Positions 2,828 to 15,906 of a stretch of DNA of 17,043 bases are shown one piece after another. Source of the DNA: Candidatus Hodarchaeum mangrovi (GTDB taxonomy: Archaea > Asgardarchaeota > Heimdallarchaeia > Hodarchaeales > Hodarchaeaceae); the NCBI GenBank assembly GCA_016839515.1, contig JAEOUE010000069.1, forward strand, positions 1 to 17,043. Reading direction: 5' to 3'. Below the pieces are notes generated by a model. The model searched no databases, was not told the origin of the DNA, and saw only the letters and a list, made by a program, of their open reading frames with translations. The number at the start of each line of letters is the position of its first letter. Position 1 is the first letter of the stretch. A program made the translations under genes and the position numbers.

Positions 2828-3187
2828 AAATATTCTCCGAAGTCAAATAATTATTCTAGTTTCCCCTATTTAAGATTTGGGGAATTAACAAAAAGGTAAA
2901 AAAGAGACCGTTGAAATTAATGAATAATTAAATTTAATATTTCAAAAAAACTTAAAACTTTCTAGATTTAGTCTAAATTACCTTTGAATTGATAACAGTT
3001 CAATTGGGTCTTTTTATTTACACTAGTTAAATCAGATAATTGTAAACAACTTAAAATTAATATTTCTGTTCAGTTTATTTTTATTATACTTAAAAGAAGA
3101 AACTTTAACCTCTCAATATTTATTTAAAAGACATAAACAATGAAATACGTTATATTTTCACTTAAAAAACATCATTTGTTGTTTAAA

Positions 3188-3574
3188 ATGAATGATAATA
3201 TAAGATTTGGACATCATTTTGAAATCTGCTTTTCTGTTAAATACCTTCAAGAGAGTATAGACTATTACATAAACCTAGGATTCAAAATTTATACAGGAGG
3301 AAAAAATAAAGGGTGGTGTATTGTAACAGATGACATGATTTACCTTGCTATGTTTCCAGACAATTTTATTGAAAAAGAATTTGGAATACCTGTGCTTTTT
3401 AATTATCGGGGAGGAAATATTCAAAAAATCGTTGCATTCCTCAAGAAAAGAGGAATAAAATTTTCAAAAGAAAGAATTTTAGAAAAAAGAACAGGAGAGG
3501 CAATCTTTACAGATATTAATGGACAGGTTTTTTATTTAGATACAAGTCCTAAAGAAGAAAGAATAGATCATTAA
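3188..3574 (+). CDS. VOC (glyoxalase/bleomycin resistance) family protein
   Basis: Pattern HFEICFSVKYLQESIDYYINLGF ... FLKKRGIKF ... FTDINGQVFYL. In-frame ATG 3188 is preferred over the track start at 3140 because the fold begins there. Confidence 0.82.
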   Translation: MNDNIRFGHHFEICFSVKYLQESIDYYINLGFKIYTGGKNKGWCIVTDDMIYLAMFPDNFIEKEFGIPVLFNYRGGNIQKIVAFLKKRGIKFSKERILEKRTGEAIFTDINGQVFYLDTSPKEERIDH

Positions 3575-3625
3575 TAGCAGAGAGAAATATTAATCATAAT
3601 TTGAACTAGCTGCGAAGGGAAAAAA

Positions 3626-4090
3626 ATGAGTATCCTACAAATATTTGAACCAAGAATGGAAAGAGCAGGTCTGTTTGCAGAGGAAGATAGTTTAATGAAA
3701 GCGTTAAAGGAATTAAAAGATCCTAAATTATCATATAAGCGATCTACTCGTGGATATACTTTATTATACAATTCAAAACCAGCTAATCCAATAATTGCGG
3801 GAAAATTACGTGATGAGGTAGAAAAAGCACTCCATCACGTTCATGCATATTATATTAAGTACATGGCTACTCGTGATTTAGCGAAAAATGGATTTAAACT
3901 TTTAACTACCATAAATTCAGATAAAAGTTTTGATATAGTCTTTCAACACGATAAAGATTCAAATAAGTCAATAAAGATTAGTACTCATTACGATTCATGG
4001 CTAGTTAATTTAGAATTAAACGGTTATAAGTCAGAAGAAACAGATTTTCTTTCTGAATTACAAGCTAGAATTGGAAAACAATTATCCTGA
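3626..4090 (+). CDS. Hypothetical protein, possible DUF1257 (Ycf35-like) + DUF2997-like fusion
   Basis: 154-aa ORF with GAAGGG upstream. L.KAL.EL, Y...(K)NGFKL...D.S..IV and KSIKIS..D...V.LE..GY...L..RIG recall the two families from memory only. Confidence 0.45.
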   Translation: MSILQIFEPRMERAGLFAEEDSLMKALKELKDPKLSYKRSTRGYTLLYNSKPANPIIAGKLRDEVEKALHHVHAYYIKYMATRDLAKNGFKLLTTINSDKSFDIVFQHDKDSNKSIKISTHYDSWLVNLELNGYKSEETDFLSELQARIGKQLS

Positions 4091-4329: not shown

Positions 4330-5361
4330 ATGCCAAAAGATATTACGCGTAGCTTACAGCTCACAGGGGCTAGAACATACTTGGTAAGTTTACCAAGAGA
4401 ATGGATTGAACAGAATGGGTTAGAAGCAAAAGATGAAATAGGAATAAGGATGGAAAATGAAATTTATTTACTACTATACCCAAGAAATCCGCGAAAATTT
4501 CCCCGAAAGACAACTACAATTTTTGAAGATGATACTGTTGAACTAGAATTGCTAGCTAGGTATGTAACAGGCTTTGACACAATGCTAGTATACCCAATGG
4601 ATTCTAAAAAAATTAAAGATCCTGATAAGATCCGAGAAGAAATCAGACATCAAATCGGTCTTGAAATTATCCGTGAATCTCCGGGACAACTCGAAATTCA
4701 ATTTATCGCTTCTTCAGCTTTAGATTTACAGACTCTTGTTAGAAAAATTTATGCTCTTTCATTTAGTATGCTTGATGATTCTATTAATGCTATCTTCAAT
4801 TCAGATCAAGAGATTAAAGAACGGATCATAAGACGCTATTCTGAGGTGGATCGTGTTTATTATTTTATTGTAAGACTTCTCCAACAAGCTTTAACTGATC
4901 CTTTAGAGGAGATAAATTTATACCCTTATGAATGTTTAAATTATCAAATTGTAGCTTATCAAGGGGAAGTTTTAGGCAAATCCTGTCGAGAGTTAGCAAA
5001 TAGAATTGGAAGATTTCAAAATTCTTTTTTAACTTCTGAAACTGAATCTATGGTAAAGGAAATAACTGATAAGTTGATAGAACTCCTAGATGATTCAATT
5101 GAAGCGTTCTTGAACAAAGATATGGAACGAGCTAAAATCACTTTTAATGAAGTAAAAAATAAAAAATATCAAGTCCAACCTATGCTAGCCATTATATCGG
5201 AAGAGGCAGCAGACGAACCTACTTGGTTTTTAGCAACATTGTTATCAAGTTTACTTGAACGAGCCGATCAAGTATGCTATTTAACAAATTTAGTTACTCG
5301 TGGATTCAAAGCATTGGAAGAATATCATTCAAAAAGTTATTTAGATTCAGAAATAGCTTGA
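4330..5361 (+). CDS. Archaeal-type AbrB/SpoVT + tandem PhoU-domain regulator
   Basis: N-terminal RSLQLTGARTYLVSLPREWIEQNGL is the archaeal AbrB-PhoU signature, followed by ARYVTGFD, GLEII.E, EVDRVY and LLERAD PhoU-repeat motifs. Confidence 0.88.
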   Translation: MPKDITRSLQLTGARTYLVSLPREWIEQNGLEAKDEIGIRMENEIYLLLYPRNPRKFPRKTTTIFEDDTVELELLARYVTGFDTMLVYPMDSKKIKDPDKIREEIRHQIGLEIIRESPGQLEIQFIASSALDLQTLVRKIYALSFSMLDDSINAIFNSDQEIKERIIRRYSEVDRVYYFIVRLLQQALTDPLEEINLYPYECLNYQIVAYQGEVLGKSCRELANRIGRFQNSFLTSETESMVKEITDKLIELLDDSIEAFLNKDMERAKITFNEVKNKKYQVQPMLAIISEEAADEPTWFLATLLSSLLERADQVCYLTNLVTRGFKALEEYHSKSYLDSEIA

Positions 5362-5495
5362 TTTAGTTATCTAGTTTATTTATTGAATCGGTTAACCCTT
5401 GAAACAGAAATATCATATATTCTGTTGCACTAATTACAAAAATAAATCTATTCAAGAAAAAGTCTAATTCTTAATTGAGGACTGAGGTAGTTGAA

Positions 5496-6731
5496 ATGGA
5501 TAAATTAGCTGTTCTTGGAGGAGAACCTGTAAGAAAAACACCTCTCTCATTCTTCAAAGTAAATTTAGGTGAGGAAGAAACTTCAAACGTTGTAGAAGTT
5601 TTGAAATCTGGAAATCTGGTTCAAACCCATGGAAAGTGGGCAAATCTATTTGGAGAATTGGCAAAAGAGTATTTGGGTTCAAAATACTCTGTGATTGCAA
5701 ATAATGGTACTAGTACAATGCATTTGGCGTTAATCGCCTTAGAAATAGGCCCTGGTGATGAGGTAATATGTTCTCCCTTGGGATGGATATCAAGTGGAAC
5801 AGTTTGTTTATATCAGAATGCAGTTCCGATTTATGCAGATGTCGATCCGATTTTTGGATTCATTGATCCAGAAGATGTCGTGAAAAAAATAACCCCACGA
5901 ACCAAAGCTGTCTCGGTTGTGCATACTTGGGGACTTCCCGCTGATTTAGATCCTCTCGTTGAAATTTGTGAGGAAAGAGATATCCTAATTATTGAAGACG
6001 CGGCAGAGGCTTTAGGTGCCACTTATAAAAATAGAAAGGTTGGAACAATAGGAACATTTGGTAGTTTTTCTACAGTATGGAACAAAATTATAACAACAGG
6101 GGAAGGGGGATTTCTTGTTACAGATGAGGAGGATCTAGCTAAAAGAGCAAAACATTTTGGGAATTTTGCAAAGGTTCCTAATAAAGGGGATTATTTTGAT
6201 GGTTTAGGATATAATTATAGAATGACAGAATTAATGGGAGCTTTAGGGGTTGCTCAGATAAAAATGATCGATCATCTGATTGAAAAGAGACAAAACAATG
6301 CAGATTATTTGACCAAACAAATAGATTCATTAGGAATTAATGGAGTTCATCCTGCTTATCAGCCAAGCTATGGAAAAGGAGTTTTTTGGAAGTACACCAT
6401 TCGTCTTGATTTAGTTAACTATAAAGTCTCACGCAATGAAATCGTACGTGCTCTTAAGGCTGAGGGAATTCAATGTGATGCTCCTGTTTTACCTGATAAT
6501 ATGCAACCTCTTTATGAAAATCAAACAGTTTATGGTACTACACATTGTCCTTGGGACTGTAAATATTATAAAGGGCCTAAAGAAATTGATTATACCAATA
6601 TGACTCCAATTGCAAAAGAATATTCAGATCGTGCAATCTGGTTAACAGGTTGTGGACCACACTTAACAAAGGTTGACCTTGATTCAATTGTGCTTGCTCT
6701 TGAAAAAGTCTTGAAATGGTATCAACGATAA
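5496..6731 (+). CDS. DegT/DnrJ/EryC1/StrS-family PLP-dependent sugar/cyclitol aminotransferase
   Basis: NGT..MHLAL, GPGDEVI, IIEDAAEA (PLP Asp), SFS...NKIITTGEGG (Schiff-base Lys), GYNYRM. ATG 5496 has GAGGT at 5484-5488 and is preferred over TTG 5475. Confidence 0.93.
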   Translation: MDKLAVLGGEPVRKTPLSFFKVNLGEEETSNVVEVLKSGNLVQTHGKWANLFGELAKEYLGSKYSVIANNGTSTMHLALIALEIGPGDEVICSPLGWISSGTVCLYQNAVPIYADVDPIFGFIDPEDVVKKITPRTKAVSVVHTWGLPADLDPLVEICEERDILIIEDAAEALGATYKNRKVGTIGTFGSFSTVWNKIITTGEGGFLVTDEEDLAKRAKHFGNFAKVPNKGDYFDGLGYNYRMTELMGALGVAQIKMIDHLIEKRQNNADYLTKQIDSLGINGVHPAYQPSYGKGVFWKYTIRLDLVNYKVSRNEIVRALKAEGIQCDAPVLPDNMQPLYENQTVYGTTHCPWDCKYYKGPKEIDYTNMTPIAKEYSDRAIWLTGCGPHLTKVDLDSIVLALEKVLKWYQR

Positions 6732-6744
6732 ATGGTGATAATAA

Positions 6745-7422
6745 TTGAAATATTCAAAAAGACAATTTGCTAAATTTTTAGATCATTCAGCGTTAAAACC
6801 TTTTTTTGGAGAACAAGATATCATACGAATGGCTACAGAAGCAAAGAAATGGGAATTTGCAGCTCTTTCGATAAATCCTCATTATACAGCACTAGCAGCT
6901 CGTGAGTTAAAAGGAACAGATATTCGTGTAAATCCGTGTATTGCTTTTCCATTTGGAGCTATTTCTCCCGAATGGAAAGCATGGGAAGCTGAAATGTGTA
7001 TTCGACAGGGAGCAACTGAAATCGATATGGTAACTAATATTGGAGCTATAAAAGAGGGAAAATGGAATTTAGTTCGAAAGGATATTGAGTCGGTTGTAAA
7101 TGTTGCTAAAGATATAGAAGTTAAAGTCATAATTGAAACTGCTTATTTAACTGATGATTTAAAAATCAAAGCAGCATTAGTGGTAGCTGAGGCAGGAGCT
7201 GCCTATGTAAAAACAAGTACAGGTTATGCTCCTACTGGAGCGACTATTCATGACGTAAAATTACTTTATAATACGGTTGGGGATCGAATTAAAGTGAAAG
7301 CAGCAGGAGGAATCCGTCATTACGAGGATGCTGTTGTAATGATTCAATCTGGGGCGAGTCGAGTTGCATCAAGTTCAACAATTCAAATTATGACAGAAGG
7401 AGGATTTCACGACTCAGCCTAA
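6745..7422 (+). CDS. deoC: Deoxyribose-phosphate aldolase-like class I aldolase
   Basis: LDH..LKP, FP.G, GATEIDMV, VKVIIET, VKTSTG (Schiff-base Lys), VKAAGGIR. TTG start with GGTGA upstream, 13 nt after the aminotransferase stop. Confidence 0.88.
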   Translation: MKYSKRQFAKFLDHSALKPFFGEQDIIRMATEAKKWEFAALSINPHYTALAARELKGTDIRVNPCIAFPFGAISPEWKAWEAEMCIRQGATEIDMVTNIGAIKEGKWNLVRKDIESVVNVAKDIEVKVIIETAYLTDDLKIKAALVVAEAGAAYVKTSTGYAPTGATIHDVKLLYNTVGDRIKVKAAGGIRHYEDAVVMIQSGASRVASSSTIQIMTEGGFHDSA

Positions 7423-7577
7423 AAAGATAAATAATAGTAAATTTTTTAATACATAGAAAATTTTTTCGTACGTATGAGGCCCTTCAGATCGGATAAGATC
7501 TATTAGTTTCTCTTCTGTATCTTTTAAAATTCATTATTTCAAAGACTAGATTCTTTATCCCTATTGATTTTAATTTT

Positions 7578-7596
7578 GAAAGGATAGATTTATATA
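7578..7596 (+). promoter_or_regulatory. Candidate archaeal promoter (purine-rich BRE-like run + TTTATATA) for the EIIC gene
   Basis: GAAAGGATAGA followed by TTTATATA at 7589-7596, about 92 nt upstream of ATG 7689. Confidence 0.5.
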
Positions 7597-7688
7597 TTAA
7601 TAGGATATTATTCATTACTCTGATTTTGAGATGATTAATACTCTCAAAATAAAATATCAGTAAAAACATCATTCGTTGGTGTTTAAAA

Positions 7689-9290
7689 ATGACTATAATG
7701 CAAGATACATTTTTTGATGCAATAAATGAAATACTACGACCCCCAATTGACTTTTTGTTTGCCGGTGGTCCAGTTATTTTCATGCCAGTTATTATTATCA
7801 TTTTGGGATTGATTTTCAGACAAGGGCTTTCCAAGTCTATCCGAAGTGGTATATTAATTGGTATAGGGTTCATTGGTATATTCACATTTGCTTTTGATGT
7901 CTTTGGTGGAACGATTGGTCCTGCAGCTGCAGCATTCGTACAGAACACAGGCATAAACCTTACTGCAATTGACGCGGGTTGGGGTTTGGCCAGTAGTATC
8001 ACTTGGGCAATGCCAACAGCATTTGGAGTTATTATATTATGTTTCATTGTAAACTTAATAATGTTGGCTCTTGGGACCAAAGCATTCAACTTCCAAGGAA
8101 AGACATTTCGAATTGGAACCCTTACATTAGATATAGACCTCTGGAACTATTGGGCTTTTGGATTTACTGCAGCATTGACTTACATTATGACCCGTGACTA
8201 CATTGGTGAACTGGGTGCATATGTCTTGGCCATGATTTTTGCTATAATCCATGCAATTATGGCCTTCAAAATATCAGATTGGATTGCACCTTGTATGGCT
8301 GATCCAGAAAACTTCAATTTACCTGGTATTTCATTACCTCACGGTAATGCAATGATGGCTCCCTATGCTTTTGCCATTGATAAAGTTTTACGAAAAATCC
8401 CTGTTATTGGAAAGGCAAAAGCAGATCCTGAATCAGTACAAGAACGATTTGGTCTCATTGGAGAACCAATTTTCCTCGGATTAGTCATTGGTGCCATTAT
8501 CGGTTTTCTTGGATATTTTGAAGGATTATTAGACCTTAGTACTTTCTGGGACACATTAGGGACGATCGCTAATGTCGCAATGGTTTCTGCAGCTGTGATG
8601 TATTTAATACCCAAGATGATCGCAGTTCTTATGGAAGGACTTATTCCACTATCCGAAGGTATTCGGGATGTTATTACCAAAAGATATCCTGGTCGTGAAT
8701 TTATAATCGGAATGGATATGGCGATAATTATTGGGTACCCTGCAGTCATTGCTGTAGCTTTACTTATGATCCCAATCTCCATCCTACTCTCTGTCTTTCT
8801 CAGCTTTCTTCCTGCACCATTTGGGATAATTGTATTACCCTATGTGGACTTAGCGGGTATGGTCTTTTATTCTGTCTTAGCTATTATGCCATCAAAAGGG
8901 AACATCGTACGTGGTGTTATTTCAGGAACGATCCAACTTGTCTTCATCCTATATACAGCAGGTGTCATGGCTCCGCTAATGACAGCTGCAGGAGCAGAAG
9001 CAATAGCTCAGGGATTCGAATTTGGTTTAGCAGATGTTGAAGAAGTCTTTGGATCAGGTTTGACAATTACATCGCTAGATGCAGGAAGCAATGCAGTACA
9101 TTGGATGTTGATATTATTAGTATTCCCATTGTTCACGTTAGAAGCATGGACCGACATCTTCACTTCTGGAGGTTATCTGATTTGGTTTGTTATTGATATC
9201 GCATGGTGGATTGGTTATATCCTACTATGGTTCTATTTACGAGACGAACCAACTAAGATTTCTGAAGAAAAAATCCATACAATGGAATGA
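7689..9290 (+). CDS. PTS galactitol-family (GatC/SgcC-like) EIIC permease
   Basis: 533-aa polytopic membrane protein with GIGFIGI, IDAGW, DIDLWNYW, GISLPHG, GLIGEP..LG...G, LMEGLIPLS, IGMD and GNIVR motifs collinear with GatC. Confidence 0.92.
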   Translation: MTIMQDTFFDAINEILRPPIDFLFAGGPVIFMPVIIIILGLIFRQGLSKSIRSGILIGIGFIGIFTFAFDVFGGTIGPAAAAFVQNTGINLTAIDAGWGLASSITWAMPTAFGVIILCFIVNLIMLALGTKAFNFQGKTFRIGTLTLDIDLWNYWAFGFTAALTYIMTRDYIGELGAYVLAMIFAIIHAIMAFKISDWIAPCMADPENFNLPGISLPHGNAMMAPYAFAIDKVLRKIPVIGKAKADPESVQERFGLIGEPIFLGLVIGAIIGFLGYFEGLLDLSTFWDTLGTIANVAMVSAAVMYLIPKMIAVLMEGLIPLSEGIRDVITKRYPGREFIIGMDMAIIIGYPAVIAVALLMIPISILLSVFLSFLPAPFGIIVLPYVDLAGMVFYSVLAIMPSKGNIVRGVISGTIQLVFILYTAGVMAPLMTAAGAEAIAQGFEFGLADVEEVFGSGLTITSLDAGSNAVHWMLILLVFPLFTLEAWTDIFTSGGYLIWFVIDIAWWIGYILLWFYLRDEPTKISEEKIHTME

Positions 9291-9319
9291 TAAGGATCCT
9301 ATTTGTAACTCCAAATCCC

Positions 9320-9362
9320 TCCTTTCTTTTTTTTCTTTAACACTAAGAAAATTTTCATTTTT
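9320..9362 (+). terminator. Oligo-T tract, candidate archaeal-type terminator after EIIC
   Basis: TCTTTCTTTTTTTTCTTT about 30 nt after the stop, more T runs downstream, no GC hairpin. Confidence 0.4.
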
Positions 9363-9429
9363 ATCAAAAATAAGCGCATTTAATCCATTAAACAAAACTT
9401 TTTACATTTCACCTTTCTTTCCCTTGCTT

Positions 9430-9441
9430 AAAATTTATAAA
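9430..9441 (+). promoter_or_regulatory. Candidate TATA box (AAAA-TTTATAAA) for the EIIB gene
   Basis: TTTATAAA at 9434-9441, 44 nt upstream of ATG 9486. Confidence 0.4.
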
Positions 9442-9485
9442 TAGAGAGATGAGTAATATTAAAAAAGATCTGTTGGTTTATAGAA

Positions 9486-9803
9486 ATGTCAAAAAAAATA
9501 TTAGTAGCATGTGGTACTGCTATTGCTACTGCAACTGTTGTTGCAACGAAAATTAAAGATTTATTAAGGGAAAACAAGATAAAAGCAGAGATTTCTCAAT
9601 GTAAATCATTTGAAGTAAAAGGAAAAGTGAATTATCAGAAATATGATTTGATTGTATCAACTACTAAAGTGTCTGGTGAAGTAACTGAGGGAGAGACAAG
9701 AACAATCAATGGTGTTCCTATTCTGAACGGAATTCCCTATCTTACTGGTATGAAAAAAGATATTTTAGATCAAGATATTCTAAAGATTCTAAAAGGTATT
9801 TAA
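9486..9803 (+). CDS. PTS galactitol-family EIIB component
   Basis: KKILVACGTAIATAT P-loop with phospho-Cys, plus QC, DLIVSTT and G.PYLTG, all GatB-like. Confidence 0.93.
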   Translation: MSKKILVACGTAIATATVVATKIKDLLRENKIKAEISQCKSFEVKGKVNYQKYDLIVSTTKVSGEVTEGETRTINGVPILNGIPYLTGMKKDILDQDILKILKGI

Positions 9804-9955
9804 GTTGTCAAGCTAAATTCATGTGTTTTTTGTTGCGAGTTGAATTTTTTAATACTTGTTAGTTCTGTTGTTTTAATTACTGATGATTCAAATATTGTTT
9901 TTTCTTTAATTTTTTTGATAAAATCCATTATAAACACATAAGGAAGAGTTATTAC

Positions 9956-10582
9956 ATGAAAAAATCACAAGCTTTAACCCAGATCAAACGTGAAATGGCT
10001 ACTGTTTGCCGAAAAATTTATGAAAAAGGTTTGACTTATAGTACGGGAGGCAATATTAGTGTACGTATAGGGGAAGACTCTTTTTTAATCAAACCTGCTG
10101 ACTATTGTTTTGGGGATTTAAAAGGTAGGGATTTTATAGTAGTTAATAGTAGAGGAGAAAAAATGATTGGTCCTAAGGGTAACAGACCCTCCAGTGAAAC
10201 ACCAATGCATGTAACTATCTATCGAGACTTAAAGGATATTAATGCCGTTATCCATGCCCATTCTCCTTATACTCTTGTTTTTGCTACTATGGGAGTTCCC
10301 ATTGAACCAGCAACAACATTTGCTGAAGAAGAGCTTGGCTTAGTCCCTTTAGCTCCTTATCGTGATCCAGGAACTCAAGATCTGGCAGAAATCGCTGCTC
10401 AAACATTGAAAAAAGTAGAAAAAAACCTCTATCCACCTGCTAAAACACCTGCAATTGCTTGTCTTTTAGAAAGGCATGGTGTTCTAGTTGCCGGAAAAAA
10501 TCTACGTCAAACATTCTATGCATTAGAATCACTAGAAACGACAGCAAGAACAATATTATGGATGAAAACAATTCAAAACTAA
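9956..10582 (+). CDS. Class II aldolase/adducin-family protein (FucA/AraD-like aldolase, epimerase or decarboxylase)
   Basis: GGNISVR, PSSETPMH (catalytic Glu), HAHSP and LERHG (three Zn-binding His). Confidence 0.92.
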   Translation: MKKSQALTQIKREMATVCRKIYEKGLTYSTGGNISVRIGEDSFLIKPADYCFGDLKGRDFIVVNSRGEKMIGPKGNRPSSETPMHVTIYRDLKDINAVIHAHSPYTLVFATMGVPIEPATTFAEEELGLVPLAPYRDPGTQDLAEIAAQTLKKVEKNLYPPAKTPAIACLLERHGVLVAGKNLRQTFYALESLETTARTILWMKTIQN

Positions 10583-10608
10583 AAAATTCTTTTATCGTGG
10601 AGATAATT

Positions 10609-11664
10609 ATGTATCCAGATGAAATGAAAGTTGCTTTAATGTATGGGGCTAAAGATATACGAATTGAAACGGTCCCAATCCCGAAAATTGAAGAAAATGA
10701 GGTTTTAGTCAAAGTTGAGTCTGTAGGTATTTGCGCTACGGACGTAAAAAAATATATTGGTGTTTCGTCATGTAAATTTCCAATTATATTAGGACACGAA
10801 TTGGCTGGATCAATTGTCAATCTTGGTTCCAATGTAACGGGATATAAAAATGGAGATCGCGTTAGTGCTAATCCTGATATGCCTTGTTTTAAGTGTAAAT
10901 ACTGCCGTCAATCGAAATTCAATCTGTGTAATAATTTAGCTGTTATTGGATATGGAACAGAGGAGATTGAACCTATTAATGGAGCCTTTGCCCAATATGT
11001 TAAGATTCCAGCTTGGAATCTCATAAAACTTGAAGATACGATTACTTATGATCAAGGAACATATATTGAACCCTTCGCTTGTGTAATCCGAAGCTTCAAC
11101 CTTGCTAAAATCAGTCCAACAGATTCTATTTTGATTCTTGGTGATGGAAGAATAGGACTATTGCATACACAACTTGGAAAGGAATCAGGAGCAGATAGAA
11201 TAATTGTTACAGGACTTTCAAAGGATCGATTAGTATTAGCAAAGAAATTAGGTGCACATGAGGTAATTAATGTCCAAAACATCGATCTTTTGAAATATAT
11301 TAAAGAACACATTTCAGATGGGGTGGATGTAGTTTTTGATACTACTGGGGTAGTATCTGCAGCAGAACAGGGAGTTCAGTTATTAGCACCCCATGGACGA
11401 TTTATTGCTTTTGCAGGTTTTCCTAAAGGACAAAATATGATGATTAATCCACGAGATTTGCATTATAAAGAAATTATTTTAACAGGTTCCTTTGGGTATG
11501 GATCACCTATGGATTATTATCATGCAGGTCATTTAATTGCAGCAAAACGCATTAAAGTTGACGAACTTACATCTCGGGTACGTCCATTAAATGGGATTGA
11601 AGAAGGTTTTATAGAAATCAGTGAATTGAAAAGTATAAGAACTATAATTCATCCTCAAGAATAA
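10609..11664 (+). CDS. Zn-dependent medium-chain polyol/sugar-phosphate dehydrogenase
   Basis: GICATD and GHE (catalytic Zn), CFKCKYC..SKFNLC (structural Zn), EP, GDGRIG Rossmann loop. ATG 10609 has GGAG at 10599-10602; the track start 10459 overlaps the previous gene. Confidence 0.92.
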   Translation: MYPDEMKVALMYGAKDIRIETVPIPKIEENEVLVKVESVGICATDVKKYIGVSSCKFPIILGHELAGSIVNLGSNVTGYKNGDRVSANPDMPCFKCKYCRQSKFNLCNNLAVIGYGTEEIEPINGAFAQYVKIPAWNLIKLEDTITYDQGTYIEPFACVIRSFNLAKISPTDSILILGDGRIGLLHTQLGKESGADRIIVTGLSKDRLVLAKKLGAHEVINVQNIDLLKYIKEHISDGVDVVFDTTGVVSAAEQGVQLLAPHGRFIAFAGFPKGQNMMINPRDLHYKEIILTGSFGYGSPMDYYHAGHLIAAKRIKVDELTSRVRPLNGIEEGFIEISELKSIRTIIHPQE

Positions 11665-11730
11665 TCACTAATTATTCAATCCTCAAATTTCATTAACTAA
11701 TTAGATAGTAAAATTTTAGCTGGATATAGA

Positions 11731-12795
11731 ATGGCAGAATTAAATAACAAACATGAAAATATAATCAAGTACATACTACTTTTAGATAAATGGAGATCCC
11801 GACAAGCCATTGAAGAAGAAATTAGTGCTTTATCACTCGTTGGGGAGAAATTTTTCCCAAACCAAACAAAAGATGCATTAAAACTCGTCAATTCTCTTAC
11901 ATGTGATCAAAATTTTCCCCTTTTATATAAGATATATCAACCAATTCAAAAATTTACCATTGCTTTAACTCTAGTTTTTGTTTTTTTTATTTTCTCATAT
12001 ACAACGAAGTCTTTTGCTTATGAACTGGCAGGGTCTCTTATTTTTAATCCGTTATTTATTTTAACTGTTTTATCTTCCTTTATAATTGCTGGTATAGTAA
12101 TGTATACATATAGAAAGAAATCTTGGGAATTTAGAAGTGCCAATATCGATAAATTACAGAATTTTAAACCAATTATTGAGGAATTAATCAAAGATCTTGT
12201 TCCACTAGCAATCGAAAGGAAATTTATTCCAAAAAAATATCCTATTCAATTAAATCATAATGATTACATAGGATTACGACTCGTAGGCTCATCTGGATCC
12301 ACTTTTCACATGGTTTTTTCATTATCTCATGCCCTGCTTCTTAATTCCCGTGAAGCTCACATTATGACGTATATGGGACGACTTTCGTTCTTTGATGGAC
12401 TTCCAGGTTTTAGAGGGGGAAAACCTTCTATTAAACTAATAGTAAGTCAAATAGCTGGAGATATCAAACCTTATCTAAAAAAATGTGCGGATTGGAGAAT
12501 GCAAGGTGTTGATGTTCTTGTAAGAAGAAGTAATCCAGATCAAATCAAAAAGAGCTATATCATATTGGATGAAGAAACGGTATGGATTTCAAGTCAGCAC
12601 CTAGAGGAATTAGATTTCCAAGATATAGTCCTTATAGATAAAATGAATAAACCTGAAGAAAAAAAGAAAATAATTTCTCGTTTTGAAAAACTTTGGGAAA
12701 CGTCTCAGATTTCTGATGAACTAGAAGCAATATCTTGGAGGACGTATTTCAAGGAACAGAGAAAAGAAGAGAAATTAAAAGGAAAAAGCGAATGA
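11731..12795 (+). CDS. Hypothetical 2-TM membrane protein with a possible degenerate PLD/TrmB-like C-terminal domain
   Basis: Two hydrophobic helices at about aa 76-127. C-terminal KKSYIILDEETVWISSQHL ... FEKLWE has PLD-fold spacing but lacks HKD. Confidence 0.5.
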   Translation: MAELNNKHENIIKYILLLDKWRSRQAIEEEISALSLVGEKFFPNQTKDALKLVNSLTCDQNFPLLYKIYQPIQKFTIALTLVFVFFIFSYTTKSFAYELAGSLIFNPLFILTVLSSFIIAGIVMYTYRKKSWEFRSANIDKLQNFKPIIEELIKDLVPLAIERKFIPKKYPIQLNHNDYIGLRLVGSSGSTFHMVFSLSHALLLNSREAHIMTYMGRLSFFDGLPGFRGGKPSIKLIVSQIAGDIKPYLKKCADWRMQGVDVLVRRSNPDQIKKSYIILDEETVWISSQHLEELDFQDIVLIDKMNKPEEKKKIISRFEKLWETSQISDELEAISWRTYFKEQRKEEKLKGKSE

Positions 12796-12837
12796 AACAA
12801 AATTATTCAGGATCTTTTACATATTTTAGCTAAAAAA

Positions 12838-14565
12838 TTAAATTTTTGTTGTCGGGTCAATAGATAAGAATTTTCGTACTTCGGGAGCTCCAGATAAATT
12901 TAATACTGTCTTTACAATATTCTTACATTCATCTAATGAAAGACTAGAAATTTTTCTCTTTACTCTTGGAATCGAACTTGGATTCATGCTCAATTCATCT
13001 ATTCCTAATCCAAGTAATATTGGTGTAGCCAAAGTTTCACTAGCCAACTCTCCACAAATTCCTACCCATTTTCCATATTTTTTAGCTACTTCTACTACTT
13101 TTTGAATTAGAAAGAAGATAGAAGGATGATAATGATCATAGATGGCAGCCATTTGTTCATTAGTTCTGTCTGCAGCTAATAAATATTGAGTTAAATCATT
13201 TGTTCCTATACTAAAAAAATCTATATATGGTGCAATATTTTCCGCACAAATAGCGGCAGCAGGAACTTCTACCATTATCCCAATTTCAACTGATTTAGCA
13301 ATTTCATATCCCTCTTCTTCTAATTCTTTTTTACATTGCTTCACCATTGTTGATAATTCATCTATTTCCTCAAAGATTGAAACCATAGGAAACATTATTT
13401 TTAAATGCCCATCAAAGGAAGCTCTTAAAGCAGCTCTTATTTGTGATCTTAAAACATCTTTTAAGTTCTCATTCAAGAGAAATCTTGATCCACGAAGGCC
13501 TAAAAATGGATTATTCTCTTTTCTAAGGTTTAAAAATGGTATATTCTTATCTCCACCAACATCGAGAGTTCTTAAGACAACGGGTCTACCTTTCATTGCT
13601 TTTAGGACTTTTTTATAGGTAGAATACTGTATGTCCTCCTCTGGCAATTTTTCATTCTTTAAATAGAGAAATTCTGTTCTGAATAAACCAATTCCATCAG
13701 CCCCATTCTCTAAAGCTTGGTTGACTTCCTCTACAGATCCAATATTCGCAAATACTTTGAATTCATAGCCATCCTTAGTCTTCGCTTTTCTAGTAGAAAA
13801 TCTCTTATTCTCATGCTCTTCCTCATAAAAAGTAGTTTGTATTGCTTTAAATTTATTGAGAGTCTTTTCATCTGGATTGATTATAATTTTTCCATTATTT
13901 CCATCAATTATAGCAAAATTATTTTCTTTCGCCGTTTTAATGAGTTCTTTAGCCCCAACTACAGCTGGTACATTTAAGGCTCTAGCAATGATTGCAACAT
14001 GTGATGTTGATCCTCCTAATTCTGTGGCAAATCCAAGAATTTTATCTTTATCCATTTCTGCGGTATCAGAAGGTGTCAGTTCCTTAGCAATGATAATTAC
14101 TTCATTTTTGAGATTCGAAAGCAATGAAGGACGCTTTCCTGATAGTGTTTTCAAAATTTGTTTTCCAACATCCTTGATGTCGCTGGACCTTTCCTTGAAA
14201 TATTGATTTTTCATATGATTGAATTTCTCTACATAATCATTAGTGACGTTTAGAATGGCTTGATCAAGACTTATATTTTCCCGTAATTTTTGAATGATTG
14301 ATTCTTGAAAATCATTATCTTCTAACATTAGTATTTGAGCATCAAAAATAGCTGCTTCCTTGAAACCAATCTCTTTTTCAGTTTTCTTTGTTAGTTCCTC
14401 AAGATATGAAATTGTATTCAAAATTGCTTCCTTGAAAATTTGTATTGAATTCTCGATTGGTAATAATTTGAATTTTGATAAATCAAAATTTGATACCTGA
14501 TCATAAAATAAAATATTTCCTATTGCAATTCCGTTTGAGGCAGGTATACCATAGACTAGATTCAT
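12838..14565 (-). CDS. ptsI: PTS enzyme I (phosphoenolpyruvate-protein phosphotransferase)
   Basis: 575 aa; AS.GIAIG, GGSTSHVAIIAR (phospho-His), GIGLFRTEF, RTLDVGGDK, NPFLGLRG, MVEVP, SIGTNDLTQY, GICGE. Confidence 0.97.
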   Translation of the reverse strand: MNLVYGIPASNGIAIGNILFYDQVSNFDLSKFKLLPIENSIQIFKEAILNTISYLEELTKKTEKEIGFKEAAIFDAQILMLEDNDFQESIIQKLRENISLDQAILNVTNDYVEKFNHMKNQYFKERSSDIKDVGKQILKTLSGKRPSLLSNLKNEVIIIAKELTPSDTAEMDKDKILGFATELGGSTSHVAIIARALNVPAVVGAKELIKTAKENNFAIIDGNNGKIIINPDEKTLNKFKAIQTTFYEEEHENKRFSTRKAKTKDGYEFKVFANIGSVEEVNQALENGADGIGLFRTEFLYLKNEKLPEEDIQYSTYKKVLKAMKGRPVVLRTLDVGGDKNIPFLNLRKENNPFLGLRGSRFLLNENLKDVLRSQIRAALRASFDGHLKIMFPMVSIFEEIDELSTMVKQCKKELEEEGYEIAKSVEIGIMVEVPAAAICAENIAPYIDFFSIGTNDLTQYLLAADRTNEQMAAIYDHYHPSIFFLIQKVVEVAKKYGKWVGICGELASETLATPILLGLGIDELSMNPSSIPRVKRKISSLSLDECKNIVKTVLNLSGAPEVRKFLSIDPTTKI

Positions 14566-14581
14566 TACCCAACATCACTCC

Positions 14582-14854
14582 CTATTCTTCACCAAATTTA
14601 TTTTCAATAAGGGATACCAACTTCTCTTTTGCTTCAAGTGCATCTTCTCCCTCAATGTATACCGTTATTGTATCACCCTTTTCAACCCCTAAACCAAGCA
14701 CACCTAAAATCATTTTAGCATCAGCTTTGTTCCCATCTTTAATTACAGTTATTTCTGAAGAAAATTTTTTTGCAGTTCTTACAAATAGTGCTGCTGGTCT
14801 GGCATGTAATCCTACTCGATTTTGTAAAGTTGCAGTAAATTGAGTTTTTGTCAT
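14582..14854 (-). CDS. ptsH: Phosphocarrier protein HPr
   Basis: 90 aa; GLHARPAA (His17, equivalent to His15), G..GD.I...EGED, directly upstream of ptsI. Confidence 0.96.
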   Translation of the reverse strand: MTKTQFTATLQNRVGLHARPAALFVRTAKKFSSEITVIKDGNKADAKMILGVLGLGVEKGDTITVYIEGEDALEAKEKLVSLIENKFGEE

Positions 14855-14874
14855 TATTAGTAGTTCCTTTTATT

Positions 14875-15327
14875 TTATTGAATATCAATTAACCTTCTTA
14901 AAATTTGAGCACTTGCGATAAGATCAGAGGTATTTCTAAGTTGTGCTACTACTTCTGGATTACTAAAAACATTATCCGTTAAAGCTTTTAAATTTGGAAC
15001 TACCATCTGAGGTTCACTAATAGCAAGTAAAAATACTAAATGAATCTTAATTTTTTGTTCTGGGTCCTCCATATTTTCCCAAAAAATAGGAGTTTGTAGA
15101 ATTCCAACTGCTATAGCAGGTTTGATTACATGTTCAGTTTCAGCATGTGGAATAGCAACATTATATTCCCCTTGAAGCTCTAATCCTGTCGGAAAATTTT
15201 GTTCACGGACATGAATCGCTGTTTCGTAAGATTCTTTTACATATCCTTTGACTAAGAGAAAGGAGAACAATTCATGTACAACTTCTTCCTTATTCCTAGC
15301 ATTTGAATTAATGATAAATATCTCCAA
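14875..15327 (-). CDS. PTS EIIA component (GatA-like, Fru/Mtl/Gat EIIA fold)
   Basis: GYVKESY, REQNFPTGL, VAIPHAE (phospho-His), F..M, LVFLLAI. TTG start with GGAAGG 9 nt upstream. Confidence 0.93.
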   Translation of the reverse strand: MEIFIINSNARNKEEVVHELFSFLLVKGYVKESYETAIHVREQNFPTGLELQGEYNVAIPHAETEHVIKPAIAVGILQTPIFWENMEDPEQKIKIHLVFLLAISEPQMVVPNLKALTDNVFSNPEVVAQLRNTSDLIASAQILRRLIDIQ

Positions 15328-15462
15328 ATTTTTTTTCCTTCCAACGCTAATATAGGATTAAGGATAGTTGGATTTTCAAATTGACCCCAACTATATCATA
15401 TTGAAAAAGGACAAATTATTGAAAGTTATTAATAATTAGTAATCGACATTTTGTATAATTTG

Positions 15463-15906
15463 TTATTTATTTTTTTCTTCTTTATTCCCAATAATGGAAA
15501 CAAAAACCTTCCTCTTCCTTGCCTCAATGTATTCTATGAAATAGACTCTTTGCCAAGTCCCTAAAACAAGTTTCATTTTATCTATACCTATAAAAATTGA
15601 ATTCCCTATCATTTGAGCCTTTACATGTGCTGCAGAATCTAATGGACTTTCTTCAATATGATTCCAGGCTCTATTTTCAGGTACAAGGTTCCATAGTATC
15701 TCTGATACATCTTTTCCAACACCTGGATCCGATCCTTCGTTTACAACAAGACCTGTTGTGGTATGCATACTATAAGCTAGTAAAATGCCAGATATTATTT
15801 TTTTATCTGTAATTATTTGTTGAAGATCCTCTGTTATGTCATGATATGTACCAGCATTTTCAGTATTTATAACAACATAATCAGTGAATATTTTTAATTG
15901 TGACAT
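15463..15906 (-). CDS. yjbQ: YjbQ/UPF0047 family protein
   Basis: DIT, HTTTGLVVNE, D, H.E...AAHVKA, LGTWQRVYFIE and R.R motifs. Confidence 0.9.
   Translation of the reverse strand: MSQLKIFTDYVVINTENAGTYHDITEDLQQIITDKKIISGILLAYSMHTTTGLVVNEGSDPGVGKDVSEILWNLVPENRAWNHIEESPLDSAAHVKAQMIGNSIFIGIDKMKLVLGTWQRVYFIEYIEARKRKVFVSIIGNKEEKNK

Follow-up and report, generated by a model that had tools for sequence, protein, structure and literature searches.

Genes and features at the locus

We analyzed contig JAEOUE010000069.1 (C290 below) from the metagenome-assembled genome (MAG) of Candidatus Hodarchaeum mangrovi, and found that it carries the genes of a phosphoenolpyruvate (PEP)-dependent phosphotransferase system (PTS). 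The window, as we call the stretch of DNA under study, is this entire contig of 17,043 bp, and its 20 open reading frames (ORFs) were scanned with the Pfam and NCBIfam models (Table 1). Pfam recognizes Enzyme I (EI), HPr, EIIA, EIIB and EIIC exactly where a first-pass annotation, made from the sequence without database searches, had placed all five in one locus. For EI, all three Pfam domains were found (scores of 379.7, 85.1 and 84.5 bits), comprising the N-terminal, mobile histidine and PEP-binding domains, and the protein is above the NCBIfam equivalog-domain cut-off (341.7 for TIGR01417). HPr is likewise above its NCBIfam subfamily cut-off (TIGR01003, 95.8 against 47.9). The permease EIIC spans positions 3-387 of the 394 in the PF03611 profile, which makes it a member of the Gat family (EIIC-GAT), and it has multiple hydrophobic segments and a C-terminal extension that runs past the family models.

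The same annotation had described the four phosphoryl-carrier residues as intact (in the motifs TSH, GLH, IPH and ACG), and all of them are present when the proteins are aligned to solved bacterial structures. EI aligns end to end with the staphylococcal enzymes 2hro/2wqd over 560 residues, including GGSTSH (His189) and the catalytic GICGE (Cys504). GLHARPA of HPr (His15) aligns with the phospho-histidine region of the bacterial HPr 3le1, VAIPH of EIIA (His61) with the corresponding residue of EIIA 1xiz, and VACG of EIIB (Cys9) with the active cysteine of E. coli GatB (1tvm). The EIIB cysteine and EIIA histidine motifs are kept in all four orthologous clusters that we describe below, and the histidine and cysteine of EI are invariant in 14/14 clade members. 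The locus encodes a complete, bacterial-type, five-component PTS, and with five intact genes and conserved catalytic residues a chance pattern is impossible.

One regulatory residue of the Firmicute type is missing from this set. Methionine occupies the position of Ser46 in HPr (KMILG in the window, KSIMG in 3le1); this serine is the target of HprK. We also found no PRD domain in the bin. The ORF of the dehydrogenase gene opens at 10459, and we placed its start at the ATG where family alignments and orthologues begin.

Table 1. Features of the window (C290) and of the second PTS contig of the bin (C329)
Feature	Contig	Position	Strand	Basis or remark
YbjQ, DUF2085, metallo-beta-lactamase-fold protein, GNAT, two hypothetical genes	C290	left part, before AbrB/MazE-PhoU		Pfam/NCBIfam
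AbrB/MazE-PhoU fusion, left backbone neighbor	C290	4330..5361	+	Pfam PhoU and MazE_antitoxin
DegT/DnrJ/EryC1-family pyridoxal phosphate-dependent aminotransferase, first gene of variable segment	C290	5475..6731	+	Pfam, 283 bits
Deoxyribose-phosphate aldolase DeoC, within variable segment	C290	6745..7422	+	TIGR00126, 235 bits (cut-off 117)
GATAGATTTATATA, putative archaeal TATA box with upstream purines	C290	7583..7596	+	~95 nt before EIIC start
Inverted repeat TTTGAGA-N10-TCTCAAA	C290	7625..7648	+	~29 nt downstream of GATAGATTTATATA
EIIC permease, Gat/Sgc family, 533 aa	C290	7689..9290	+	PF03611, 198.6 bits (cut-off 24.2)
EIIB, phospho-cysteine Cys9	C290	9486..9803	+	PF02302 (PTS_IIB), 44.4 bits
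Class II aldolase/adducin-fold enzyme (FucA/AraD/OtnC superfamily)	C290	9956..10582	+	PF00596, 165 bits
Zn-dependent medium-chain dehydrogenase, polyol/threonine dehydrogenase type, 346 aa	C290	10624..11664	+	ADH_N and ADH_zinc_N
Orphan protein, 354 aa	C290	11731..12795	+	no Pfam/NCBIfam match
EI (PEP-protein phosphotransferase), His189 and Cys504	C290	12838..14565	-	TIGR01417, 623 bits
HPr, His15	C290	14582..14854	-	PF00381, 99.9 bits
EIIA (type 2), His61, TTG start	C290	14875..15327	-	PF00359 (EIIA_2), 89.3 bits
ATTACTnAnTTTTAATAA, putative TATA-like promoter box	C290	15426..15444	-	upstream of EIIA-HPr-EI
UPF0047 (YjbQ-like), backbone neighbor	C290	15463..15906	-	PF01894, 111 bits; adjoins BtpA in PTS-less G063
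BtpA/SgcQ-family protein, right backbone neighbor	C290	16080..16895	+	PF03437, 255 bits
Mannose-type IIC	C329	6751-7470
IID	C329	7543-8310
IIB, sorbose type	C329	~14709-15197
IIA, mannose type	C329	~15197-15610
Second EI	C329	18740-20473		480 bits
Second HPr	C329	~20478-20726

Host of the contig

The bin comprises 4,006,905 bases in 348 contigs, with an estimated completeness of 91.3%, a contamination of 6.1% and a guanine-plus-cytosine (GC) content of 33%. A search with RF01959 found no small-subunit ribosomal RNA in it, and the host was classified by its protein markers and the labels of its relatives. The bin encodes the archaeal/eukaryal ribosomal protein S3Ae, two adjacent Snf7/ESCRT-III genes above the Pfam cut-off, and an actin (437 bits), and based on this combination we regard the host as an Asgard archaeon. 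In a scan of one genome per species, six loci carried an EIIC with 74-83% identity to that of the window; two were labelled Hodarchaeota, three Heimdallarchaeota (including B3_Heim) and one Thorarchaeota. The Thorarchaeota-labelled locus (L037) is a 3.5-kb contig with DegT (64% identity) and EIIC (76%) in the order seen in the Hodarchaeota-type loci, and it is probably a fragment of this type binned into a Thorarchaeota MAG, providing no evidence for the cluster in Thorarchaeia. The first-pass annotation, which was not told where the DNA came from, had argued for an archaeal host outside the haloarchaea and had thought a Heimdall/Hod-like Asgard plausible. Both suggestions are borne out by the markers and labels above, and also by the GC of 0.33 and by proteins that are not halophile-like (pI 4.7-9.4, D+E approximately equal to K+R).

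The composition of the contig matches its bin: its GC is 0.327 compared to 0.329, and in tetranucleotide composition only 35 of the 138 contigs of at least 8 kb are closer to the bin mean (rank 36). In a congeneric genome (G058), a contig of 631,821 bp has the cluster at 230-250 kb, actin at 401 kb and, flanking the cluster on both sides, 6 of the 54 Ras-family matches of that genome. DNA nearly identical to the window occurs in 20 runs from 7 studies, none of them listed as an RNA run. Logan contigs from three other studies covered 30/30 window bins at 95% identity or more, those of a fourth study covered 26/30, and single Logan contigs bridge DegT-DeoC-EIIC, EIIC-EIIB-aldolase, dehydrogenase-orphan-EI, EI-HPr-EIIA-upstream and UPF0047-BtpA.

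In the left part of the window, contigs from three runs join position 2810 to position 4420 and so lack the 1,609 bases in which the two hypothetical genes lie (3140-4090). With only 21 letters on the shorter side of the joint, this hints no more than weakly at an indel variant in other populations.

A presence/absence segment within the genus

We compared the gene order around the cluster by searching the 19 proteins of the window against related loci with tblastn. Three congeners (G058, G061 and G073) share the full order AbrB-PhoU, DegT, DeoC, EIIC, EIIB, aldolase, dehydrogenase, orphan, EI, HPr, EIIA, UPF0047, BtpA. G069 has the gene order of the window from DegT onward, without DeoC, on a contig that starts at DegT. 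Two other congeners have empty sites: in G060 (L078) BtpA follows AbrB-PhoU after ~200 bp, and in G063 (L079) the order is AbrB-PhoU, UPF0047, BtpA. In G057 (B3_Heim, L036/L080) there is a remnant consisting of AbrB-PhoU, DegT, DeoC, EIIC and EIIB, with no match from the aldolase through BtpA; we found no match to EI in this 93% complete genome either, which leaves an EIIC/EIIB pair without the energy-coupling chain.

The DegT aminotransferase is syntenic in the PTS-bearing congeners and is not found at the empty sites. DeoC is syntenic in three of the four congeners with a full cluster and in the G057 remnant. Orthologues of AbrB-PhoU (79-81% identity) occur in six congeners, two of them without a PTS, and BtpA is kept at 75% identity in the PTS-less G060 and G063. 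The stretch from DegT to EIIA (~5475-15327, ~10 kb) behaves as one presence/absence segment, and AbrB-PhoU, UPF0047 and BtpA are backbone genes. The first-pass annotation had proposed a self-sufficient module acquired by its host. A module it is, with its own EI and HPr and with the form of a ~10-kb indel relative to congeners, but the word acquired goes too far: the end points of the empty sites differ, one congener retains a remnant, and repeated loss of an ancestral cluster would explain this no worse than a single insertion.

Counting the genome of the window, EI was above the cut-off in 6/22 genomes of the genus and EIIC-GAT in 7/22; across the phylum the counts were 15/400 and 11/400. 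The other carriers are a family with small genomes (f24; L044/L022-L028), in which six of seven members have EI and three of seven EIIC-GAT, and the single genomes G007, G055 and G003. G007 (L045) has EIIA_2, EI, HPr, a very divergent EIIC-GAT and a IIB, and G055 (L043) has EI and HPr with a DhaM-like EIIA of the mannose type, DhaL, DhaK and a MIP channel. In the set that we searched, few genomes of the phylum have a PTS, and it is stably integrated where it is present.

A second PTS in the bin

Another contig of the bin, C329 (L016, L077; 24.6 kb, GC 0.331), carries a complete PTS of the mannose family, which is regarded as a bacterial family, together with its own EI and HPr (Table 1). With this second system in the bin, a host with no housekeeping PTS, as the first-pass annotation had supposed, is not supported. 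The genes next to it include a GFO/IDH/MocA oxidoreductase, a cupin-type isomerase and ceramidase-like genes. Among the 22 genomes of the genus, the second EI was seen in this species only. We assign C329 to the genus because one of its flanking genes has orthologues (69-75% identity) in five congeners, none of which has an EI.

The two EIs are ~37% identical, and in a quick tree the C329 enzyme falls on a long branch with other Asgard EIs. That tree hinted at separate origins of the two enzymes, and we dropped the idea when an approximately unbiased (AU) test did not reject the union of the C329 EI with the Hodarchaeota-type ("Hod") clade of the window's EI (p-AU 0.52). The placement of both systems in one cell rests on binning. 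Orthologues of the C329 flanking gene and of the AbrB-PhoU gene in the window occur in non-overlapping sets of congeners, a mosaic presence that neither proves nor excludes a mixed bin, and actin is 97-98% identical across the genus and so uninformative about co-residence.

Promoter-like elements and a conserved inverted repeat

The GATAGATTTATATA element is near-invariant in all six aligned orthologous regions upstream of EIIC, and we infer that it serves as an archaeal TATA box. The arms of the inverted repeat downstream of it are kept in five of the six orthologues, with spacers that vary (N10-12). In G069 three paired positions have changed on both arms and are still complementary, so the complementarity itself seems to be selected. 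The repeat could be a repressor site or operator that covers the start of transcription, or it could form an RNA hairpin at the 5' end. It occurs once in the window, and a genome-wide search gave six matches to the 12-base palindrome, none of them in a similar promoter context, so nothing points to a regulon. The AbrB-PhoU protein is a candidate regulator.

On the opposite strand, the ATTACTnAnTTTTAATAA element upstream of EIIA may be a TATA-like promoter; its core TTTTAATA is invariant in four of five aligned EIIA upstream regions, and the window has TATTAATA. The TTG start of EIIA and a GGAG motif are conserved in 5/5 sequences. Shine-Dalgarno-like motifs precede both EIIC and EIIA, and oligo-T runs follow DeoC, EIIC, EIIB and BtpA. 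The TATA-like boxes and oligo-T ends on which the first-pass annotation had relied were both found, with the boxes conserved upstream of EIIC and EIIA. A scan for bacterial sigma-70 promoters gave 37 sites where 40.6 +/- 5.6 were expected, which is the chance level, and for bacterial promoters and terminators together the counts were at or below chance.

The orphan protein

The 354-aa protein encoded between the dehydrogenase and EI has a hydrophobic stretch (approximately residues 70-127) long enough for two membrane helices, followed by a C-terminal domain. It is kept in all four syntenic clusters at 44-66% identity. A profile search of 1.84 billion representatives returned four matches at E<1e-10, all from its own small family, and the protein is found only in these PTS clusters. 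In a relaxed Pfam scan no family appeared in more than two of the five members. The AlphaFold2 model, built from five sequences, has a predicted local distance difference test score (pLDDT) of 66.5, with most of the C-terminal domain below 50, so the fold is not confidently predicted. We rejected one lead from the Atlas search, to PLDc_2 (score 0.84), as below a trustworthy level.

Divergence and origin

Across the four syntenic congeners, identity to the window is 74-83% for EIIC, 71-77% for BtpA, 77-81% for AbrB-PhoU, 60-76% for HPr, 57-63% for EIIA, 49-58% for EI and 44-66% for the orphan. EI usually evolves slowly. The segment is old in this lineage, its residence having lasted long enough for proteins to drift apart to 49-83% identity, and its EI is oddly fast-evolving.

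Besides its own protein, EIIC has 17 database matches with at least 62% identity, and those that are named come from Hodarchaeota, Hodarchaeales or Heimdallarchaeota, except for the 3.5-kb contig with the Thorarchaeota label. The next match is at 50%, in a cluster that includes a protein named for a Bathyarchaeota MAG. The remaining matches are at 41% or less, and the named ones are bacterial (Desulfitobacteriaceae, Polyangiales, Thermogemmatispora, Clostridiaceae and others). In an IQ-TREE phylogeny of 64 rows, the Hod clade of EIIC (16 rows) has a support of 100 in the Shimodaira-Hasegawa-like approximate likelihood ratio test (SH-aLRT), its sister is the Bathyarchaeota-labelled protein (99), and both lie within a group of Clostridia and Chloroflexi. 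The EI tree likewise has a Hod clade (23 rows, support 100, stem 0.51), and the next-best database matches of EI (43-48%) are Thermoprotei-, Odinarchaeota- and Bathyarchaeota-labelled proteins mixed with Chloroflexi and Clostridia. Given that EIIC groups with its Bathyarchaeota-labelled relative inside the bacterial radiation of the Gat family, the ultimate origin is probably bacterial, and we read the trees as suggesting an old transfer from bacteria to archaea, possibly followed by spread among sediment archaea.

Proposed function and alternatives

By homology, PEP would phosphorylate EI on His189, and the phosphoryl group would pass from EI to His15 of HPr, then to His61 of EIIA and Cys9 of EIIB. 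EIIB would hand it to a substrate bound in the EIIC permease, and the substrate would enter the cell as a phosphate ester. The Zn-dependent dehydrogenase and the aldolase-fold enzyme most likely process this ester. Our best guess, and the least certain step, is that a polyol phosphate would be oxidized to a ketose phosphate, which the aldolase-fold enzyme might then cleave, epimerize or decarboxylate to dihydroxyacetone phosphate (DHAP) or pentose phosphates. A polyol-like compound is a possible but rather doubtful class of substrate. DegT and DeoC accompany the segment, except that G069 lacks DeoC, and may belong to the pathway. The nearest neighbors of the dehydrogenase in the PDB are threonine, xylitol and sorbitol dehydrogenases and GatD, and the nearest solved structures of the aldolase-fold protein are fuculose-phosphate aldolases. 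The NCBIfam matches of the latter include aldolases, epimerases and one decarboxylase, with all equivalogs below cut-off.

Taken together, we believe with good though incomplete confidence that the locus truly belongs to the chromosome of a Hodarchaeales-like Asgard archaeon and that it encodes a complete, probably functional, PEP-dependent carbohydrate PTS of the Gat/Sgc family. Several observations weigh against this. The galactitol models are all missed, with 307.3 against 542.2 for EIIC (TIGR00827) and 64.6 against 95 and 67.2 against 139 for EIIB and EIIA (NF007643/NF007236), and the dehydrogenase scores below the cut-off of the GatD model for galactitol-1-phosphate 5-dehydrogenase (NF007642, 159.8 against 550). 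The aldolase-fold protein has a phenylalanine where its best-matching fuculose-phosphate aldolase has a conserved tyrosine, which we take to be the catalytic tyrosine of FucA. The permease may have a PTS-independent life, because G057 keeps EIIC and EIIB without EI. The divergence of EI (49-58%) compared to EIIC may reflect relaxed constraint. Every genome involved is a MAG, and the EI and EIIC trees come from quick searches with midpoint rooting and long-branch warnings; they are too weak to name a donor, and the direction of gain and loss is not polarized.

The PTS is overwhelmingly bacterial in the sections of PMC8100219 that bear on it, and contamination of the bin is estimated at 6.1%, with no rRNA found, so we considered whether bacterial DNA had been misbinned into this Asgard MAG or the contig was chimeric, a possibility that the first-pass annotation had itself raised. 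The cluster, however, occurs with the same non-PTS neighbors in four other congeneric MAGs, one copy sits on a 631-kb contig with actin and six Ras GTPase genes, and contigs from three other studies independently bridge all of the gene junctions. The composition fits the bin as well, and sigma-70 sites are at chance level while the TATA-like boxes are conserved, and we consider this explanation effectively refuted. A decaying, non-functional relic of a transfer would account for the patchy distribution in the genus (EI 6/22, EIIC 7/22), for the one clear remnant and two empty sites, and for the low identity of EI among orthologues. It is very improbable in light of the ten segment genes, which, although they have diverged to 44-83% identity, are open and full length in the window, G058, G061 and G073 (in G069, all except DeoC), with invariant catalytic residues and conserved promoter-like and start-site motifs; such intactness needs long purifying selection.

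The locus might also be a true galactitol PTS, an orthologue of E. coli GatABC coupled to the Gat pathway: public annotation uses the galactitol name, the best NCBIfam names are galactitol IIC, IIB and IIA, and a GatD-like dehydrogenase is present. The galactitol models are nevertheless missed by wide margins, no tagatose-bisphosphate aldolase of the GatY/GatZ type turned up in the 20 scanned ORFs of the window (the search did not extend to the rest of the genome), and the aldolase_II-fold enzyme and the adjacent SgcQ-like BtpA bring the locus closer to the uncharacterized sgc system, which makes the galactitol assignment improbable. Of the galactitol-family PTS in the first-pass annotation, the Gat family is retained on the Pfam evidence and the galactitol part is not, as every galactitol-specific NCBIfam cut-off was missed. 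Slightly less improbable is the idea that the genes are intact but mainly form a signaling phosphorelay or a cytoplasmic kinase system (PTS-Ntr or DhaM-like) instead of a transporter. EI and EIIA evolve faster than EIIC, in the Asgard genome G055 EI and HPr work with DhaM, DhaL and DhaK as a non-transport PTS, an orphan membrane protein lies in the cluster, and with no PRD regulator found any regulatory wiring must be unconventional. We still consider a signaling role unlikely, given a full-length EIIC with many hydrophobic segments, a cognate EIIB and two carbohydrate-processing enzymes directly after it, and a layout like that of a classic catabolic PTS operon such as E. coli sgc.

Significance

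In its passages on the subject, a 2021 survey of Asgard transporters states that not a single PTS protein was found in Asgard MAGs or in MK-D1 (PMC7997004), and the locus contradicts that statement for one genus-level, Hodarchaeales-like Asgard lineage. The PTS is also treated as almost exclusively bacterial (PMC8100219, in the portion concerned). We found no published description of a PTS in Asgard, Heimdall or Hod archaea, although subscription papers and supplementary tables may list genes. The first-pass annotation had allowed that orthologous clusters might already be described in this lineage. Such clusters do exist in public MAGs under automatic names, for example 'PTS transporter subunit IIC [Candidatus Hodarchaeota archaeon]', and we found no paper that describes them. 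One candidate source, PMC13728122, mentions Hodarchaeales and was set aside, as 'PTS' there stands for plasmid names.

The locus is an intact, long-resident PTS island. As a type of system it is ordinary, but its host is unexpected and apparently undescribed. Hodarchaeales-type Asgards are often discussed as close kin of eukaryotes. The island offers a test case of how an archaeon whose cell biology resembles that of eukaryotes adopts a complex bacterial phosphorelay of several proteins and rewires it for archaeal transcription. It is also relevant to metabolic reconstructions of Asgard archaea, which generally assume sugar uptake by ATP-binding cassette or secondary transporters, and EI, HPr, EIIA and EIIB are small, soluble and easily tested in vitro.

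Combining all of these observations, one could propose that PEP-driven group translocation has long been domesticated in Hodarchaeales-type Asgards, where it would run from archaeal promoters. Its regulation would use neither PRD domains nor HprK and would depend on the orphan membrane protein and on an operator or hairpin specific to the lineage. The system would be part of an archaeal lineage of PTSs that also includes those of Bathyarchaeia-like sediment archaea, and this species would have two insulated relays, of the Gat/Sgc and Man types, each with a private EI-HPr pair. As a whole we regard this combined proposal as speculative and rather unlikely to hold in every part.

Comparison with known systems

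With the E. coli galactitol system (GatABC, GatD and GatYZ), the window shares the Pfam family of EIIC, an EIIB that aligns with GatB including the active cysteine, and a GatD-like dehydrogenase. It differs in missing the galactitol cut-offs, in having no GatY/GatZ in the window scan, and in an aldolase of another fold family (PF00596).

As far as the relevant parts of PMC8100219 and PMC12525153 go, the only archaeal PTSs named as characterized are those of haloarchaea. The fructose PTS of Haloferax volcanii and the DhaKLM-linked EI/HPr share with the window a bacterial-type EI, HPr and EII in an archaeal chromosome. Unlike theirs, the EII here is of the Gat/Sgc and not the Fru type, and the host is a low-GC, non-halophilic Asgard archaeon. 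The HPr of the window is also below the haloarchaeal HPr equivalog cut-off (67.4 against 140).

Thermofilum pendens also has a PTS. The nearest EIIC outside the Hod clade, at 50% identity and sister to it with an SH-aLRT of 99, is that of a Bathyarchaeota-labelled contig (L049; cluster of P0019, with a Bathy-type EIIC that is 99% identical). The gene order there, EIIA on the minus strand followed by EIIC, EIIB, an aldolase_II and a Zn-dependent dehydrogenase, is the same as in the window, and a BtpA gene (46%) is nearby. In contrast, its aldolase and dehydrogenase are 31% identical to those of the window, it has a second IIA/IIC/IIB set, and its GC is 0.43. No EI or HPr lies on this 10.8-kb contig, whose taxon label comes from the MAG title only.

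The sgc operon of E. coli (sgcX-sgcB-sgcC-sgcQ-sgcA-sgcE-sgcR) is an uncharacterized Gat-family PTS that shares with the window separate IIA, IIB and IIC polypeptides of that family and a neighboring BtpA-family gene. BtpA of the window is 43% identical to SgcQ over its full length, and EIIC is 32% identical to SgcC. The window differs from sgc in that it is without an SgcE-type epimerase, SgcX and the DeoR-type SgcR, and in that it encodes an EI and an HPr of its own, together with a Zn-dependent dehydrogenase, an enzyme of the aldolase_II fold and the orphan membrane protein. The two also differ in the position of the shared neighbor: SgcQ is encoded inside the sgc operon, whereas BtpA of the window is a backbone gene that persists in congeners without the PTS.

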